Source: Narcine bancroftii
Lineage: Eukaryota
Direction: 5' to 3'
Assembly: GCF_036971445.1 (NCBI RefSeq)
Contig: NC_091473.1
Span: forward strand, 255,068,001 to 255,132,000
Length of the DNA stretch: 64,000 bases
Of the stretch, positions 2,379 through 23,190 are shown piece after piece (position 1 is the first letter of the stretch; each line of letters starts with the position of its first letter). Under the pieces are notes generated by a model. That model worked only from the letters and a program-made list of their open reading frames with translations, was not told where the DNA came from and did not search any database. The position numbers and the translations under genes were made by a program.

Positions 2379-3415
2379 TAACAATTACAGCACAGAAACA
2401 GGCCAACTTGGCCCTTCTAGTCCATGCTGAACACATTTCCCACCTCACCCCACTGATCTACACTCATCCCGTAACCCCCCTCTTCATTCCTTTCCCGTCC
2501 ATATACATATTCAATTTCTCCTTAAATGCTAATATCGAGCCTGCCTCCACTACTTCGTCTGGAAGCTCGTTCCACACGCCCACCACTCTCTGAGTGAAGA
2601 AGTCCCCCCTCATGTTTCCTCTAAATTTTTGCCCCCCCAACTCTCAGCTCATGTCATCTCGTTTGTATCTTCCCCTTCCTTAAAGGAAAAAAGCCTCTCC
2701 ATGTCAACTCTATCTATACCTTTAATAATTTTAAATAGCTCAATGAAATCCCCTCTCAACATTTTACGTTACAACGACCTAACTTATTTAACCTTTCCCT
2801 ATAACTTGGACACTATAACCCCAGTAAATATCTGCACTCTCTCCAAATTGTTGATATCATTCCTATACTTTGGTGACCAAAACTACACACAAAACTCCAA
2901 ATTTGGCCTCACCAATGCCATGTACAATTTTAACACAACATCCCAGCTCCTATACTCAATGCTCTGATTTATAAAGGCCAACATACCAGAAGCTTTCTTC
3001 ATCACCCTATCCACCTTCAAGGAACTATGTCCCATTATTTCTAGATCCCTCTGTCCTTCTGAAATCTCCAACGCCCGACCATTCACTATCTATGTCCTAT
3101 TTTGATTAGCCCTACCCAAAATGTAGCACCTCAAACTGATCTGCATTAAACTCAATCTGCCATCTCTCAGTCCATCCTTCCAACTGGCCTAAATCCCTTC
3201 TTAAAAAAAAAGAACACCTATCTCCGTATCATCCGCATATATACTAATCCAATTTCACACCCCATCATCCAGATCATTAATGTATATGACAAATAGTAAT
3301 GGACCCAATACTGATCCCTAAGGCTCACTACTCATCACTGGCTTCCAATCTGACAAACAGTTATCGACAACTAACATATGTTGAATCCATTTTACTACCT
3401 TAATGTAAACACCTA
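2379..3415 (-). mobile_element. CR1 LINE 3' portion
   Basis: ORF2 peptide GMLAFINQSIEYRSWDVVLKLYMALVRPNLEFCV plus CR1 tail. Confidence 0.9.
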
Positions 3416-3504
3416 ATGATTGAACCTTCTGAACTCAACCTGAAACCCTCCATTCCTTTCCCATCCAGGGAATCTTATCTAAAGTCCATATATGCAACAT
3501 CCAC

Positions 3505-4200
3505 TCCCTTACCCTCATCAACCCACGATTGTGCAGCCAAACACAGCTTGAACCACATCATCAACTTCGCTGACGACATGACCGTGGTGGGTCTGATCAG
3601 TAAGGATGAGGAGTCAGCGGACAGAGATGAGGTGCAGTCACTAACGGACTGGGGCAGAGCCAACAACTTGTATCTGAACGTTGAAAAAACAAAAGAGATG
3701 ATTGTCTCCCACCCTCCATCCTCTCTACATTCCACAGAGGATGTATCGAGAGCATCCTGTGCAACTGCATCACTACCTGGTTTGGAAGCTGTACCACCTC
3801 AGACCGCAAGACCCTGCAGAGGATAGTGAAGTCAGCGGAAAAGATCAGTGGAGGCTCTCTTCCCACCATGAAGGACGTCTACAACACTCGATGCAGGGAA
3901 AGGCAATAAACATTGTGAATGACTCCACACACCCCTCATGTAAACTGTCCTCCCTTTTGCCATCTGGTAGGAGGCACTGTAGCACTTGAGCTCTTATGTT
4001 CAGAGTGGGAAACAGCTTTTCCCCCAGGCTCCATAACTCCCAGTATAGATGTTCATAGTGTGCCTCAATACCTTAATATTTTAATGTGTTAACTGCTTTC
4101 CTAGCTTATATCTATATAATGATGCTCCATAGTCCTGGAGAAATTCTATCTCGCCTTTACCATTTGAGCATGGGATGAACGGTAAATAAAATTGACGACT
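3505..4200 (+). mobile_element. Rex1/Babar LINE 3' portion
   Basis: THDCAAKHSLNHIINFADDMTVVGLI...NNLYLNVEKTKEMIV. Confidence 0.88.
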
Positions 4201-8335: not shown

Positions 8336-8524
8336 TTAACTTAGAACATGGGGATCTTCCAGTGAATTTACTGGGGGCAGCAGGTAACATTGGGGAGAGG
8401 CATGAGTCAGAGGGACACTTCCACAAAATTCGACCTGCTGGCTACAGGACTGATCGGCACTGCTTGCCCTGCCATCTCTCATGGCTTCCTGCTTGTTTCC
8501 ATCTTTTATTATTTTGCTCAAAGG

Positions 8525-8850
8525 CAGCCATTTTCAATGGGGTCCTCCATTCTCCCCTCCTTCCTCAGGACAGAGGGATTGATTTAACCTCCTTCCCTCC
8601 CTCCCCAGGACAGGGGAACTGATTTAACTCCCCCCACACCCCTCCCCAGGACAGGAGGACTGATTCCCCTCCCTCCCAGCATTTAAATAAAAACCTTGTT
8701 TTCTTTTCACTCACCTACCACAAATATTTTTTTATGTTTTTGTGTGTATTTGGTAAGAAAATTTGACTGTTTCACAAGGAAGGGGCCCCATTAAACATTG
8801 ACCAGAGTCCGGGGGGGTTTGGTGCTGAAAAGAAAGGTTGCAAATGGCTA
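8525..8850. mobile_element. hAT MITE of the same terminal family as 6918-7521, downstream of the cytokine stop codon
   Basis: cagccattttcaa ... ttgcaaatggcta termini; imperfect flanks ctcaaagg / ctctaaag. Confidence 0.7.
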
Positions 8851-8904
8851 CTCTAAAGGGTGGAGAAAGGTGAGGAGTGGCAGTAGTACTGAAACTGCCA
8901 AGCC

Positions 8905-8916
8905 TAAATATAAATA
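8905..8916 (-). promoter_or_regulatory. AU-rich elements (two ATTTA) in the proximal 3' UTR
   Basis: Plus-strand taaatataaat reads ATTTATATTTA on the mRNA, about 55 nt after the stop; typical of cytokine mRNAs. Confidence 0.5.
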
Positions 8917-8971
8917 CTGTATGGCTTAATCCAGGAAGTGTTGGGACTCCTTCTGCCAGCTCGGCTGCTTC

Positions 8972-9061
8972 TCAATTTCTTCTCATGTTTATGTATTTCC
9001 AAACCCAGTCAACGAAGACGTTGAGCTCTCCCATGGCTTTATACACACCTCTCACCTGTAA
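8972..9061 (-). CDS. il10: IL-10-like exon 5 coding part (LQVRGVYKAMGELNVFVDWVWKYINMRRN*)
   Basis: Acceptor cttccatcag; IL-10 family signature G.YKAMGEL..F; TGA at 8972-8974. Confidence 0.95.
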   Translation of the reverse strand, partial: LQVRGVYKAMGELNVFVDWVWKYINMRRN

Positions 9062-12000
9062 CTGATGGAAGACAGGAAGACAGTGAGGATTGAGGGCTCA
9101 GGAACACATGCAGGGTTGTTGGAAAGTCAGCTCCCTGGTTAATTAAGAACAGAATTGCTCTCTTACCTGCTTGAATATCCTTTGAATTTTTTGGAAATGC
9201 GGACTTGGTTTGCAGCTGCAAAGATCACAATTGAAGAACATGCGCTGAAAGGCAAGATTTCTCACTTTACAAAATGGTTTAATCCTGTGTCATTTTGAAA
9301 TTAGACACATTCTGATACCAATGTAAAAATATTGTTTTGAGTCTAATGTTGTGAAAATATTAACAGGAGTAAGAACGGGTTTGGAAGACATAGTGGAAAA
9401 GATCAAAGTGCAGAGAAAGATCCTGAATTGTATCTTGCGTAAAAACAACATCGTGATTCATTTTAATCCATTCGAATGTTACCATATCACAAGAAAAATG
9501 TGCAAACGTAAAGGTTGCAGATGCTGCCTCCGGCAACAGTCTGCATTCTAGGCATTATATATTCCACCATTCAATTAAAAAAGTGAAATTGTGATGACTA
9601 CTTGACCTTAAGCAGGACTCAAAAGTGCCTCAGTACCGATTCAAGCCTCTGTCGATTACAAGGTGTGACAGAACCCTAACTCTCTGTCTTGATCTGGAGC
9701 TTGCTCAGGCCCTGACTTGGTGTTCACCAGAATAACGCTGCCCGCACCATGATCGCCGAGTGAATGCCCGTGCAGCCATGGCCGCAGATTAAAGGATGCT
9801 GTGCAGCAGTGGGATTGAGCCCGGCAGCTTGGGTGTGGTTATGGTCTGAAAGTGTGGGAAGAATCTCATCAATACAAACCCAGGAAGGGACAAGACCGTT
9901 TATTTTCAAAGTGGGAATCTGGAGAAGTGACCTTTTATTTGGCAAATCACTCAGTGAAGAATAAAGAAGTGAAGTTTTGAACTCAGAGGTTAACTTGTGC
10001 GACTATTTAAATGCCCAGTCTGGGGCTGAACTTATTCTTCAATATTATTGCAATCAGTTGCTCTGCTTTGATGGGATGAATTGGTTGCAAAAACAATTAG
10101 GTCAGCAGTTCTTTTTCTGTTTGCAGCTGGTGCTGTCCCGCTGAAAATTTGCATCCTTCGCTCTTGCTCAGGCTGATGCAGATACGCTGTAGTTGGCTGA
10201 TTATCTGCTTAACGGTTTTTGCAGTAACAATGATGAAATGTTCATTTCATGCCTGCCCTTGTTTCATTTTGAATTCAGCTGCTTATATTAACAGAGCGTG
10301 GTATCAGAGGTGAATGAATCACTTCACTTTTGCATGCAGAGAACCAGAAGCCCTTCTTGTTTCGGCTCAGGACTCCAAGATCTGCTGCCAATTGGACACA
10401 AGGTATGTCGATTCGCTGGCTTCGGAGGAGTTGGCAAACCAGCTTCAACAGGGTGCTGTTGTAAATCTGCACAGTAAAATGATGTTTCTGGAGGTTCACC
10501 TTAACCATCAGAAGCCGACTCCAGAAACGCGAAGCAACACAGAAAGAGGACTAGAACCTGCCAGCTCTCAGGGACCAGCCTCATCACTCCCATATCCCAT
10601 CTCTGCAGAACTAGGAACAGCAGTTCGCTCCCCTGCCCCACAAGATCATGGCTGACCTGGCTGTGGCCTCACCTTCCTCATAACCTTTCATCCCTCTATC
10701 CTTCAAAAGTCGACCTTAAGTACAGATAATGGGGCAGCCTCCACTGCTTCCTTGCGGAGAGAATTTCCTTATGTTCTTGCAACTTACTCTCCACCACACA
10801 AGCCTGTCTGCTGCCCTTTCACATTTTTTTTTGCCACAAGCAACAATATTCAGCAGCTTAAATGAACCTTTTGGTGCATGAGAGAGAATTGTAGCACCGG
10901 GGTAAACCCATGGGGAGAATGCGCAAACTCCACACAGACAGCTGAGGATCAAACCTGAGTCACTGGAGCTGCAAGTCAGTGGTTCAACCTGCTGCATCAC
11001 TATGCCACCCCAAGCAAGCTGTCATGTCAGTGACCATTCTGAGCCTGACCACCCTGGTGGGATGCCGGTGGTCTGGAAAGAGGTCAGCACAATGGGCTAA
11101 GAGCTGTGAAGAATGGTTGAAAGAATTGAACCAACTGAGTCCGGACGGAGGGTTGCAAGAAGGGACTGCTTGCTGTTCCCCAATTAGCACCATCTCCAAG
11201 AAGTTCTGCCAAATGCTCTCAGTGACGTTCTGATGCGTTAGTGGGTCACTGGGCTTCAATAAACCTCATGAGGGGAACATGAAGGAGAAATCACATTGAA
11301 ACCTACCGAAGTAGAGTGGATATAGAGAAGAGGTTTCTAGCAGTGGGAGAGTCTGGTACCTGGGAGAGGACACAGCCTCAGAATAAAGAACAGAGATGAC
11401 AAGAAGGTTCTTCAGCCAGCGGGTGGTGAATCTGTAGAATACTTTGGCACAGATGGCTGTAGAGTCCAAGACATTTGGATACATTTTAAAGTAGAGGGTG
11501 ATAGGTCCTGATTAGTGAGGGTGTCAAAGGTTATGAGGGAAAGCAGGAGAACGGAGTTGAGAAGAAATGTACATCAGCTGCGATTGAATGGCAGAGCAGA
11601 CTTGATGGGCTGAATGGCCTCATTCTGCTCCTACATTTTATGGTCTAAACAGGAAAGAGAGTGACTGGACTATCTTCTGGGACAAACTAGGTAAAATATC
11701 TTGTTACGGTGGGGTTGGTACACCACTGTGCCAGGCTGGGGCAAGTGTTGCAGTCATTTTACCAAAGTCACTCGGTTTACATTCCATGGTGAAACTGAAA
11801 CCCCAGCCCACGTTTGGGTCCGTGGAAACAATTCGAGGGTAAAAGTAACTCAATCACTGCTGTTTCTCATGAGCAGATGTGCATTGTGCATTTGTATTGA
11901 GAACTTTTCACCAACTCACCATCCAAATTCTGTTCAGCAACAAAGGTCACAAAAGTTCAGGATGAGGCTGAATATCCAAAAATAGTGAAGAATATTACTC

Positions 12001-15000
12001 AGTCCTTTGCAAGTATTTTAAACCTTTTGCAGATGAGTAAATAAAGTTTTTTGAAACTAAGTTAATGAATGTCAATCTCAAAATCTATATTTAATCTTCT
12101 TGTGAAGGAATTTCAAACCGTAAACATAAAAATGATTTGCTGGCCCATGTAATTCTCTGAGGTCAATTTTAAGAGCTCAGTTGGACTTCATGTGGACGTT
12201 TAGTGTTTTAGATTGGGACTAATTCACACTTCAATTCCAGTGATATTACTGACTGTGATAGACAAGGCTCTCTCCGCTTCAAGGTTTTGATAGGAAGTGC
12301 CAAGGCGAATATTAGGAACACTTTCACAGAGTTTGAGTGGATGACATTCTCGTTCGGTTAACGCGACCCACATTCTACCAAGTAAACTGACTGGCAGCAT
12401 CATGGTCTGACTTGGAAACTTGATTGGCCGGGCACCAGCCTCCTGTCCACGAAGCATTGGACATCTTAAAGGACCCCCATACCCTGGTCACAACTCACTT
12501 CTCCCTTCGGGCAGAAGGTACAGAAGCCTAAATACCTCTAGGTTTAAGAGCAGCATTTCTCCAACAACTATCAGGCTCTTTAACCTCCCCTTTAACCCAG
12601 ACCATAAACGATTCCGGGATCACCAAAGATCTGTCTGCACGAACACCTTTTTCCTCTTGCACTTACTGCAACTGAGAATACAGTAAAATTTTCCTGATCT
12701 GGGATTCAAACGATCAGTAGCTCAAGCAACCGGCAAAATGAATGGGTGAAAAATCCGAGACGCTCCAAACCGTTACTTCGCCAATCACGCAACAAGCAAC
12801 CTCAAAGAAACGGAAAAGTCACTTCACTGGTGCCGGACGCTGGAGGTTTACTGTATTTATTTATCTATCCTTCAATAATTATCCCTTTTTCTGACTATTA
12901 TCTTGAGTTGCTGGTGCGTCTAGCACACCCCCTGTGGCTCCAGCTAGTGTGCATCCATACCTATACATCTGACAATAAGTTCTCCTCTCAATTGTGAAAT
13001 ACTCACACAATGTTGCACATTCTCGTTCAGCTCATGCAAAGTGTTGGCAATTTTACTGATATTCCTCCTGAGGCTGTGGCCGTGGGTCTTCGCTGCTGGG
13101 ATGACATCTATGAGGTAAAAATTCAGCATTTCCTTCAGGAACTGGCAACTGTGGATGTCCTAAACATGTACAAGAGGTCACTGTTAGGTCTTGAAAAAGT
13201 CATTACGCAGAAACAGAAAATTTGGGTCCCAGATAAGTTCCAAAGTCTGGGTCCTGGTTTAGATAAAATGCACTTTGAAGATCCTCTGTTTTGAAAACCG
13301 TAACCCAAAATTGAAGCAGGGAACTATTTTACAATATTACTGTTTAATTTTCTATTTTTAAACTTAAAACTCATTTTTTTTACTTCTTCCATCAGCGTAT
13401 GCCCGACTAAAGCAACTCCAATGCAGATGATGCTCAAAGTTCAGTTTAATTTACAAGGCCAACATTTGATTATGTCAGTGATCTGAAGCTTGGCTCCTTG
13501 GGTGATGGAGTAGGAGTGTCTTCTCCCACAGGCAGGCCCAACCAGTGAGTGGTGAGTCTTGGTATGTAGTCTTCCCTGCCGATCCCCCTACACCATCCCT
13601 TACTGTCACAGACCCTGCTACTATTAATATAAAGTCCTGCTGAATGAAATAACAACACCATTCCCACACAGAACAAGACCTTTGTCGCCAGGTCTAAATC
13701 CTGAAACTCCTTCCTAATCTCAGTCTGGGAGCCCTTCACCAGTTCACTGCAATCTTTACAAACTGCAGGAAGAGCTCAGCTGGCTGGCAGCATCTGTGGA
13801 GGAAAATGATGCAGGTCGAGAGCCTACATCAGAACTCGAGGGCAACCAATAGATGTTGACTGCCTATTGCTAGATGACTTGTGAGCTCCTGTGTGGGCCA
13901 CAAATGTTGACATGTTCAGTGATGCACAGATCCCTAATAAAAGGGGTTTCCAAAGTTGTTCCTGATATTTTCCCTTCGTGAATCATTGCTTCTTCATTTC
14001 AAGTGTGGGCAGGTCTTCGTTGTCTTCAGTCTAATCACTGGCGCATTGGCATAACCCTTTGGCTGAAGTTCTAATCAGTTAAATCAAACCTACACTGACA
14101 ATTAACACCCAACGTGAAAATTAGTCTGCTCACTCCCACTTTCTACCTGGTGAAGTTTGAGTTGTTAAGAGAAAAGGGCACGCAAAATCATCGAGGACCC
14201 CTTCCACCCTGCACACAGAATCTTTCAATTGCTCCTGTCGGGGAAGAGATCCAGGAGGATCAGAGCCAGCCCCACCAGGCTGAGGAACAAATTCTTCCCA
14301 CGGGCTCATATTAACTATCCGAGACCGTCATATTTATTGGTTTATTTATTTATATGTATGGGTGTGGATCTGCATGTTTTGCACCGAGAACCAGAGAACA
14401 TGGTTTTGTCAGGTTGGACTTGTACGATCTGATGACAATAAACTTGACGGTGCTTGAATCAGTCCACTATTCTCATCTCCTGCCCGTGAACTTTCTTGAG
14501 CTTCTGTTTATTTTTGGGGAACTACAAAGCAATTTGTGACTCAGCACCAGACACACAGATCAAAGCAGTGAAACCAACCACCGGAAGGGAACAATTTGTT
14601 GGCAAACCCTCACCGAGAGTGACACCCCATCACTCCTGTTCTCCAGGGCACAGGCACCCGGCTACATTCCCACGACACTCCACCACAGCACCCTCCCAGG
14701 GGCTCAGCACGTCCACCTTTAACCATGCAAGTGAAGCTTCCCTCTCACCGTGAATCCTGGCAGGTCTCGCGGTTTCAGCAGAATTGTCTTGAAATTGCCA
14801 TCTTTTTCTTGCTGCAGTAAAGAAGCACAAATTCAGCACTTGGGCGCGGATGAATTATTCCTCTGCCACCTTCCACCCTTCACTTGACTGGTACAGCTTT
14901 ACTCCCCACACAACAATGAACACAAACACCACGAACGGAGTCAAACATTGTCTGATGAATTCATTTAAACTCCCATTTAAAATCTGCGCTCTCTAAGATG

Positions 15001-15500
15001 ATGCCATCTTCAATAAAGCAGCAATCCCCGGTTATCATCCTCTCTTGGTCAACATTGCGAAGTAGCATTGAACAATTCTATATATCTTTTCTCTGCATCA
15101 CTTTTAAAACATGCATTGTTTAAAACAGTTGATATCAAGCTCAATTAACATGTACCCCATTACTACGATATTTGGATCAGCTTCAGATTTTGTTTGTGCC
15201 TTTGATGTCTTCAAGTATTACTTGGAACCTGCTTGCATGAAGAGCTGTAACAAATGCAATCCCAGCCTGACTGACTTTCCAACACAGCAGTAACTTGCAA
15301 AGAGTGCTCTGTTCTCACTGCATCTAAAACACACACTTCCATTTGATACTTACAAAGTGAACCCTGATTTTGTGATATGAAGTCCTGAGTTCTTCGATGT
15401 GAGCAGGGAAGATGGCGTAGTTGAAGCAGAGCTGAGAGGAGTGACAGTAGTGACACTGAATGCTAATCAGTGTACACAATACCAGAGTGACGCTCTTCAT
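8972..15500 (-). CDS. il10: Interleukin-10 family cytokine (IL-10-like), 5 coding exons, 176 aa
   Basis: Manual splice assembly of exons 147+63+153+78+90 nt with all introns GT-AG and phase 0, the IL-10-family architecture. Shows a signal peptide, CQFLKEMLNFYL..V.P.A helix C and GVYKAMGEL helix F. C25/C75/C121/C127 align with the two IL-10 disulfides. Orthology to IL10 versus an IL-19/20-type paralog needs a phylogeny. Confidence 0.92.
9167..9244 (-). CDS. il10: IL-10-like exon 4 (RMFFNCDLCSCKPSPHFQKIQRIFKQ)
   Basis: 78 nt, acceptor cctttcag, donor gtaaga; Cys six residues after the exon-3 Cys as in IL-10 HRFLPC. Confidence 0.92.
10880..11010 (-). mobile_element. Old V-SINE fragment
   Basis: ggggagaatgcgcaaactccacacagac is the reverse V-core. 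Confidence 0.65.
11290..11648 (+). mobile_element. CR1 3' end (intron 3)
   Basis: ttcttcagccagcgggtggtgaatctg...gggctgaatggcct...atggtcta. Confidence 0.8.
12370..12680 (+). mobile_element. Rex1-like 3' fragment (intron 3)
   Basis: LLPSGRRYRSLNTSRFKSS.SP..IRL. Confidence 0.7.
13007..13159 (-). CDS. il10: IL-10-like exon 3 (DIHSCQFLKEMLNFYLIDVIPAA...NVQHC)
   Basis: 153 nt, the same length as human IL10 exon 3; acceptor tgtttag, donor gtgagt; ends in the conserved Cys. Confidence 0.95.
14165..14460 (+). mobile_element. Rex1-like 3' end (intron 2)
   Basis: LLSGKRSRRIRASPTRLRNKFFP; tail gacaataaacttgac. Confidence 0.75.
14749..14811 (-). CDS. il10: IL-10-like exon 2 (QEKDGNFKTILLKPRDLPGFT)
   Basis: 63 nt, acceptor tttactgcag, donor gtgaga; resembles QMKDQLDNLLLK (IL-10) and QAKDGNIDIRIL (IL-20). 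Confidence 0.9.
15354..15500 (-). CDS. il10: IL-10-like exon 1 (MKSVTLVLC...ELRTSYHKIRVHF)
   Basis: gaaaccATG in Kozak context, hydrophobic signal peptide, helix A resembling LRDLRDAFSRVKTFF, donor gtaagt. Confidence 0.92.
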
Positions 15501-15555: not shown

Positions 15556-15563
15556 CTTATATG
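15556..15563 (-). promoter_or_regulatory. TATA-like box of the IL-10-like gene
   Basis: Minus-strand CATATAAG about 56-63 nt upstream of the ATG. Confidence 0.55.
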
Positions 15564-22169: not shown

Positions 22170-23190
22170 AGAGAAACTTGTCCGTGAACTACTCTTTGCA
22201 GATGATGCCGCTTTAGTTGCCCATTCAGAGCCAGCTCTTCAGCGCTTGACGTCCTGCTTTGCGGAAACTGCCAAAATGTTTGGCCTGGAAGTCAGCCTGA
22301 AGAAAACTGAGGTCCTCCATCAGCCAGCTCCCCACCATGATTACCAGCCCCCCCACATCTCCATCGGGCACACAAAATTCAAAACGGTCAACCAGTTTAC
22401 CTATCTCGGCTGCACCATTTCATCAGATGCAAGGATCGACAATGAGATAGACAACAGACTCGCCAAGGCAAATAGCGCCTTTGGAAGACTACACAAAAGA
22501 GTCTGGAAAAACAACCAACTGAAAAACCTCACAAAGATAAGCGTATACAGAGCCGTTGTCATACCCACACTCCTGTTCGGCTCCGAATCATGGGTCCTCT
22601 ACCGGCACCACCTACGACTCCTAGAACGCTTCCACCAGCGTTGTCTCCGCTCCATCCTCAACATCCATTGGAGCGCTCACATCCCTAGCGTCGAAGTACT
22701 CGAGATGGCAGAGGTCGACAGCATCGAGTCCACGCTGCTGAAGATCCAGCTGCGCTGGATGGGTCACGTCTCCAGAATGGAGGACCATCGCCTTCCCAAG
22801 ATCGTATTATATGGCGAGCTCTCCACTGGCCACCGTGACAGAGGTGCACCAAAGAAAAGGTACAAGGACTGCCTAAAGAAATCTCTTGGTGCCTGCCACA
22901 TTGACCACCGCCAGTGGGCTGATAACGCCTCAAACCGTGCATCTTGGCGCCTCACAGTTTGGCGGGCAGCAGCCTCCTTTGAAGAAGACCGCAGAGCCCA
23001 CCTCTCTGACAAAAGGCAAAGGAGGAAAAACCCAACACCCAACCCCAACCAACCAATTTTCCCTTGCAACCGCTGCAATCGTGTCTGCCTGTCCCGCATC
23101 GGACTGGTCAGCCACAAACGAGCCTGCAGCTGACGTGGACTTTTTACCCCCTCCATAAATCTTCGTCCGCGAAGCCAAGCCAAAGAAAGA
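22170..23190 (+). mobile_element. RTE-BovB-like LINE, 5'-truncated, inside the hAT element
   Basis: ELLFADDAAL RT motif followed by an open 295-aa ORF; nearly identical to 16894-17735. Confidence 0.93.

Follow-up and report, generated by a model that had tools for sequence, protein, structure and literature searches.

The window analysed here, 64,000 nucleotides (nt) of the electric ray Narcine bancroftii (NCBI RefSeq assembly GCF_036971445.1, contig NC_091473.1, positions 255,068,001 to 255,132,000), holds on its minus strand a five-exon gene for a 176-amino-acid (aa) protein. We consider it very likely that this gene is the ray's single-copy, spliced orthologue of interleukin-10 (IL-10), and this assessment covers the whole of our best explanation: orthology, fold, presumed secretion and function, and a narrowly favoured dimer. 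The gene itself is already known and ordinary. Its product is identical over all 176 residues to RefSeq XP_069792571.1, "interleukin-10-like" [Narcine bancroftii], and orthologues from 15 chondrichthyan species are on record (16 records, named interleukin-10, interleukin-10-like, or unnamed), so the gene is not "hidden" among repeats, as an earlier note on this DNA had put it. The features of the gene, in window coordinates, are as follows.

15557..15563, minus: TATA-like CATATAA, a candidate promoter element about 60 nt above the ATG, by pattern match only
15354..15500, minus: exon 1, coding part (147 nt), with hydrophobic N-terminus, C25 and helix A (from hydropathy and contigs)
14749..14811, minus: exon 2 (63 nt), A-B loop with Q50, K52 and D53
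13007..13159, minus: exon 3 (153 nt), helices C and D with C75 and C121
9167..9244, minus: exon 4 (78 nt), D-E hinge and helix E
9212..9229, minus: hinge C127-x-x-C130-x-C132, the conserved IL-10 cysteine followed by a four-residue extension with two extra cysteines
8972..9061, minus: exon 5, coding part (90 nt with TGA), helix F with KAMGE, N161 and W166
8668..8971, minus: 3' untranslated region (UTR), covered by contigs, with ATTTA three times, at 8915, 8909 and 8688
8505..8510, minus: AATAAA, a candidate polyadenylation signal by pattern, its use not established

All five exon lengths are divisible by three, the phase-0 joins yield an open frame of 176 codons, and each of the four introns (542, 1589, 3762 and 105 nt) runs from GT to AG; the exon joints and canonical splice sites given in the earlier note agree with this. 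At the window's stop frequency the chance of such an open frame is about 2e-4, a crude figure since the choice of exons was free. Spliced, intronless contigs from public runs match the joined exons with 0 mismatches in the listed pieces (three runs, 3/3 examined, all of one study, their RNA status being a software guess). None of the listed runs that contain the sequence is recorded as RNA. The joints 9061/9167 and 13158/14748 occur in two of the three runs each and 9244/13007 in all three, every one with CT..AC ends. For exons 1 and 2 the contig rows listed show no joint; it is implied by the coordinates of an 843-nt contig of the X1 run, which places its letters 1-155 on 15508-15354, 220-371 on exon 3 and 450-843 on 9061-8668. 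A 737-nt contig of the X2 run likewise matches the exons letter for letter in its listed pieces. A spliced form of the IL-10 gene thus exists, and its transcript extends upstream of the ATG to at least 15508. The four junctions predicted earlier are therefore seen in three cases and implied in the fourth, within that one study of guessed RNA status.

The genome holds one copy of the gene: five strong matches are these exons, the other eight are weak (E 0.24 or worse), and the same genome search found no second copy of the processed-pseudogene kind, only those weak extra matches (E>=0.24). The three ATTTA pentamers of the 3' UTR are likely to form an AU-rich instability element. A 960-nt promoter scan with exact patterns gave no NF-kB, STAT or AP-1/CRE match, a result that is uninformative.

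The whole protein matches Pfam IL10 (PF00726) at 94.6 bits (E 6e-27, residues 15-171, cut-off 24.2). Scanned singly against the same profile, exon 3 reaches 29.2 bits, above the cut-off, and exon 5 reaches 19.8, below it; exons 1, 2 and 4 give no match. The earlier reading as an elasmobranch gene for a cytokine of the IL-10 family is borne out, expression included, by spliced contigs, Pfam and RefSeq, and can be pinned further to IL-10 itself. Hydropathy points to a likely signal peptide at about residues 1-19, and cleavage would fall near residue 19. At the end of this region (residues 16-19, window 15444-15455, minus) stands a C-x-x-C that reads CCYC or CCCC in relatives, and these cysteines may pair with C130/C132 if the signal is cut earlier than assumed. 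C25, C75, C121 and C127 align with all four cysteines of human IL-10 (C12, C62, C108 and C114), and from the human pairs C12-C108 and C62-C114 we infer disulfides C25-C121 and C75-C127. One N-glycosylation sequon, N103, lies in the exon 3 part. The AlphaFold model shows the six-helix class II cytokine fold (mean predicted confidence, pLDDT, 90.9), and the top structure matches of this predicted fold are an engineered monomeric human IL-10 (IL-10M), IL-20, IL-19, IL-24 and IL-22 (Z 21.5-14.4).

Against solved structures the ray protein scores 74-82 bits with IL-10, 54 with IL-20, 43 and 29 with IL-24, 33 with IL-19 and 12-13 with IL-22, and its Pfam IL22 score of 16.3 bits lies below the cut-off of 30. 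A 73-row tree places it among 11 chondrichthyan rows (support 100/99) inside a 36-row IL-10 clade (98/95); when three long rows and the columns of the hinge and of W166 are left out, a 33-row IL-10 clade holds at 96/98. Both trees (LG+G4, no mixture model, midpoint root) put the protein outside the IL-19/20/24 clade and outside the IL-22/IL-26 clade. The protein does not show the six-cysteine pattern of IL-19/20/24, having Q76 after C75 instead of CC in helix C; a cysteine after C75 is found in 0/14 chondrichthyan IL-10s versus 24/27 rows of the IL-19/20/24 clade.

Several observations weigh against our explanation. The published IL-10 motif 2 (KA-x2-E-x-D-...) is found in 0/14 chondrichthyan rows, with N for D at 161, and motif 1 in 6/14, the ray protein not among them by inspection. 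In length the hinge matches that of the IL-19/20/24 clade, where the solved structures are monomers. The DYRK kinase of the locus scores 751 bits to DYRK2 structures versus 723 to DYRK3. Expression support comes from contigs of one study. As to motif 2, it matches 10/11 sarcopterygian and 18/30 actinopterygian IL-10s, and it is not strictly defining because 13/41 bony IL-10s also miss it; the signature was drawn from bony vertebrates (PMC4338397).

One alternative is that the gene encodes no IL-10 at all; it would then be a paralogue, IL-19/20-like or intermediate, that signals to epithelia by way of IL-20 receptors. Hinge length, the C-x-C and W166 do resemble the IL-19/20 clade, and the RefSeq name goes no further than "interleukin-10-like", a label that does not by itself identify a family member, because the teleost proteins P0078 and P0116, which also bear it, group with IL-26. 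We nevertheless find this alternative very improbable, and largely refuted by its own neighbourhood and tree: a separate, canonical IL-20-like gene lies 70 kb off, on the other strand, and its product falls with the IL-19/20-like proteins of sharks (100/99), an approximately unbiased (AU) test on the alignment reduced as above rejects grouping the chondrichthyan rows with the IL-19/20/24 clade (p 0.022), and the position and strand of our gene beside MAPKAPK2 are those of IL10. Its neighbour also bears on the traits that the earlier note had taken as defining the IL-10 family, namely five phase-0 exons, a 153-nt exon 3 and the KAMGEL motif. The exon plan is shared by class II cytokine genes, for which five phase-0 exons are described as general (PMC5332411, PMC8863823), and the IL-20-like gene has a 153-nt exon 3 and KAIGE, so these traits do not define the family member.

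The IL-10 orthologue differs from its bony-vertebrate counterparts chiefly in the hinge between helices D and E. Exon 4 codes for 26 aa in the ray versus 22 in tetrapod IL-10, and the alignment gap falls between human N116 and K117. In one 92-row alignment, from which we took span and residue counts, the extension with two extra cysteines is found in 14/14 chondrichthyan IL-10s and in 0/41 bony-vertebrate IL-10s. The counts omit P0011 (partial, with an odd C-terminus), P0014 (an isoform), P0038, fragments, and nine divergent unnamed IL-10-clade rows (P0065, P0066, P0073, P0108, P0110, P0113, P0119, P0145 and P0162). For another ten rows, bony and unnamed, the group was decided by inspection or tree. 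Both C130 and C132 are conserved in 11/11 and 10/10 rows of two chondrichthyan alignments that reach from rays to chimaera. Among IL-10s, the span L114-K155 is 41 in 14/14 chondrichthyan, 37 in 11/11 sarcopterygian and 36 or 37 in 30/30 actinopterygian rows; it is 41 in 16 of the 27 IL-19/20/24-clade rows (37 in 5, range 37-42) and 40 in 8/10 IL-26/22-like rows. In helix F, W166 is common to 27/27 IL-19/20/24-clade and 10/10 IL-26/22-like rows, with Y at this site in 40/41 bony IL-10s, and N161 (window 9020-9022, minus) replaces the family's D in all 14 chondrichthyan IL-10s while D165 is fixed. N161 aligns with human D144, which we take to be an IL-10R1 contact, and together with the fixed D165 it hints at a shifted receptor contact in chondrichthyan IL-10. 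The simplest reading of the hinge counts would be that the long hinge is ancestral, retained in chondrichthyan IL-10 and shortened in bony vertebrates. The change may instead have been a chondrichthyan gain, since support for bony IL-10 as one group is only 44/71 without the hinge columns.

Whether the longer hinge alters the assembly is a closer question. For ray IL-10 we narrowly favour a domain-swapped dimer, the form of every natural IL-10 solved so far; among class II cytokines, PMC4034011 names IL-10 and IFN-gamma as the intertwined dimers and calls the others monomeric. A natural monomer, in which helices E and F, given four more hinge residues, would fold back onto the chain they belong to, is a possibility we place short of an even chance. 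Such a protein would resemble IL-19/IL-20 or IL-10M, its signalling complex would be 1:1:1, and the swapped dimer would have arisen in bony vertebrates by loss of four residues. The attraction of this reading is the position of the extension, between human N116 and K117, exactly where a GGGSGG insert makes IL-10M (the insert is visible in P0051); that insert after N116 is reported to give a stable, weaker monomeric human IL-10 (PMC12866158; bioRxiv 2020.03.10.985069; PMC3462211). The uniform chondrichthyan span of 41 is also the commonest one in the IL-19/20/24 clade, and W166, shared with all 37 non-IL-10 rows, is a second trait that looks ancestral. Yet four residues of which two are cysteines differ from six flexible ones, and one of IL-20's four extra residues belongs to the E-F loop, not to the hinge. 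Nor is the span a clean marker, given the five IL-19/20/24-clade rows with 37. Monomeric human IL-10 is reported to be much weaker (PMC12866158; bioRxiv 2020.03.10.985069), and dimeric IFN-gamma is reported as sister to the IL-10 family (PMC6640115). The low support for a bony IL-10 group also counts here, since it leaves room for a chondrichthyan gain. The fuller claim, that cartilaginous-fish IL-10 is a natural monomer with the ancestral hinge and that the interlocked dimer arose in bony vertebrates by a four-residue loss, we regard as unlikely.

Structure prediction did not separate these states. The single-chain AlphaFold model of the ray protein is closed, with a root-mean-square deviation (rmsd) of 2.2-2.6 to monomeric IL-10 and 17-18 to swapped IL-10, and 136-147 of its residues superpose on IL-10M, IL-20 and IL-19 (rmsd 2.1-2.9). 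We rejected the closed chain as evidence for a monomer: pig IL-10, run as a control on the same 55-row alignment, gave a closed chain too (rmsd 1.7 to 1lk3 and 17-18 to swapped IL-10), so the test says nothing on assembly. Hinge confidence in the closed model, 85 versus 74 for the pig control (residues 101-110), is a weak hint towards the monomer. A two-copy complex prediction without an alignment scored 0.02 against a mark of 0.32 and is evidence neither way.

The two extra cysteines have to be accommodated in any assembly. For comparison we use the disulfide pairings of IL-19/20 and the residue roles of human IL-10. The extra hinge cysteine of IL-20 has its partner beside C75 (24/27 rows), which chondrichthyan IL-10 is without (0/14), a point against the monomer; because that helix C partner is absent, other bonds must serve C130 and C132: one between the two, new pairs with C75/C127, bonds to the second chain, or bonds to C16/C19. 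Pairing across the crossing hinges would give a covalently locked dimer that resists falling apart, and this we consider distinctly improbable as a reading of its own, a covalent lock taking about a third of the probability given to the swapped dimer. The conservation of both cysteines in all rows, chimaera included, and the lack of a helix C partner speak for the lock, as does the strain of a C-x-C bond inside one chain. It has no support from models or contacts, and intrachain re-pairing could serve instead (C127-C130 or C127-C132, with C75 taking the other), as could C16/C19 if the signal is cut earlier than assumed. The lock also relies on the closeness of the two hinges in the IL-10 dimer, which we count among its weaknesses.

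In the working we propose for ray IL-10, a precursor with a hydrophobic N-terminus would likely be secreted and adopt the six-helix fold with disulfides C25-C121 and C75-C127. The mature protein would form the domain-swapped dimer, with C130/C132 adding a hinge disulfide within or between chains. It would be bound by IL-10R1 and then IL-10R2 and signal through JAK and STAT3, as IL-10 of bony vertebrates does, and by that analogy ray IL-10 likely damps inflammation via an IL-10R1/IL-10R2-type pair and STAT3, restraining inflammatory cytokines as in other vertebrates. The AU-rich 3' UTR would keep its mRNA short-lived. An immune-cytokine function is what we infer from orthology and splicing.

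Around the gene, on C11, the order RASSF5 type, EIF2D type, DYRK, MAPKAPK2, IL10 and IL20-like is made up of the following features.

C11 254.726 Mb, plus: Nore1-SARAH match (RASSF5 type), by domain match
C11 254.822 Mb, minus: Pre-PUA match (EIF2D type), by domain match
C11 254.840 Mb, plus: class-2 DYRK, by kinase comparison
C11 254.876-255.029 Mb, plus: MAPKAPK2, ending about 47 kb from the IL-10 stop
C11 255.077-255.083 Mb, minus: IL-10 gene, from its exons
C11:255153374-255156504, plus: IL-20-like gene, five exons, intact, 70 kb from the IL-10 gene

Kinase motifs served to find neighbours, and the kinase names were then checked by sequence comparison. We name the DYRK only as class 2 because DYRK2 scores slightly above DYRK3. 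Of the MAPKAPK2/DYRK3 synteny expected by the earlier note beyond the window, MAPKAPK2 is thus present and the DYRK stands as a class-2 member, DYRK2 or DYRK3. Published IL10 neighbours are MAPKAPK2, DYRK3 and EIF2D, with IL-20L beside IL10 in fish (PMC4338397). The IL-20-like gene, which a tblastn search of 464-664 kb of flanking sequence brought to light, has exons of 153, 63, 153, 75 and 84 nt and encodes 175 aa with CC in helix C, a CHC hinge and the KAIGE motif; the same flank held no third IL-10-family member at E<0.01 (tblastn). A genome-wide family search returned only exons 3 and 5 of the IL-10 gene, and because it missed the IL-20-like neighbour, searches of this kind undercount. The sole gene-order reading from another chondrichthyan is in the bamboo shark, from adjacent locus tags chiPu_0007920/7921. 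A 2025 survey traces IL-19/20/24 only as far as gar (PMC12652433); the ray IL-20-like gene and named shark records put this subfamily in cartilaginous fish.

Elsewhere in the genome, C23 carries an IL-22-like candidate on the minus strand, compact (five exons, about 1.2 kb) and named by exon pattern and motif only. Three places on C23 score weakly, at 17.7-18.8 bits (cut-off 30), one of them at C23:89349639-89349806 (plus), and suggest a local triplication. Several loci carry exons of the class II receptor type (25 Tissue_fac matches), none of them assigned to IL-10R1/R2. The introns and flanks of the IL-10 gene hold high-depth repeat stretches. Between MAPKAPK2 and the IL-20-like gene there are 48 long open reading frames (ORFs), of which 28 were scanned; two of the 28 contain LINE-like reverse-transcriptase fragments (window 22171-23133 and 3404-3826, both plus), with RVT_1 below its cut-off, and the scan showed no other gene family. 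Two 1269-codon frames with the same start, at C11:254983460 and 255310321 (minus), each follow an identical 446-codon frame and look like recent full-length LINE copies.

IL-10 homologues in dogfish, elephant shark and coelacanth are mentioned in a review (PMC6795676), and the 2025 survey traces IL-10 to Callorhinchus (PMC12652433). Our literature search met no paper that deals with the chondrichthyan IL-10 hinge or with recombinant IL-10 of a shark or ray, much subscription fish-immunology literature lying outside it. The gene adds only a firming of the "-like" annotation to IL-10. The hinge matters if it changes the assembly: it would then date the origin of IL-10 domain swapping and offer a natural scaffold for monomeric or disulfide-locked IL-10, both current goals of cytokine engineering (PMC12866158; bioRxiv 2020.03.10.985069). 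Were the monomer true, shark and ray IL-10 would be nature's version of IL-10M; the potency of mammalian IL-10 depends on the interlocked dimer. Either answer would be a solid result in comparative immunology and not a new kind of system.

Set beside known systems, the gene shows no sequence difference from XP_069792571.1, whose annotation stops at "-like" where tree and synteny make it an IL-10 orthologue. Other chondrichthyan IL-10s (sawfish, skates, devil ray, sharks, elephant shark) are 44-69% identical to it and have the same C-x5-C-xx-C-x-C hinge, N161 and W166; the mature N-terminus of the ray is three residues shorter, and HS for EG before C75 is common to other batoids. With bony-vertebrate IL-10, a swapped homodimer (2ILK/1ILK, 4X51, 9WEN; 76-82 bits), it shares the four core cysteines, the motifs of helices C and F, the plan of five phase-0 exons and a MAPKAPK2-linked locus, but its hinge is 4-5 residues longer with two more cysteines, and helix F has N and W at the sites of human D144 and Y149. 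Engineered IL-10M (1LK3, 8SVE) carries its extension at the same position, after N116, as six Gly/Ser where the ray has four natural residues with two cysteines, and a monomer is shown for IL-10M only. IL-19, IL-20, IL-24 and fish IL-20-like proteins (1N1F, 4DOH, 6DF3; monomers) share the commonest D-to-F span of 41, the hinge C-x-C and the helix F tryptophan, yet they form a separate clade with CC in helix C, absent in ray IL-10, and in the ray the paralogue exists as a gene of its own next door.

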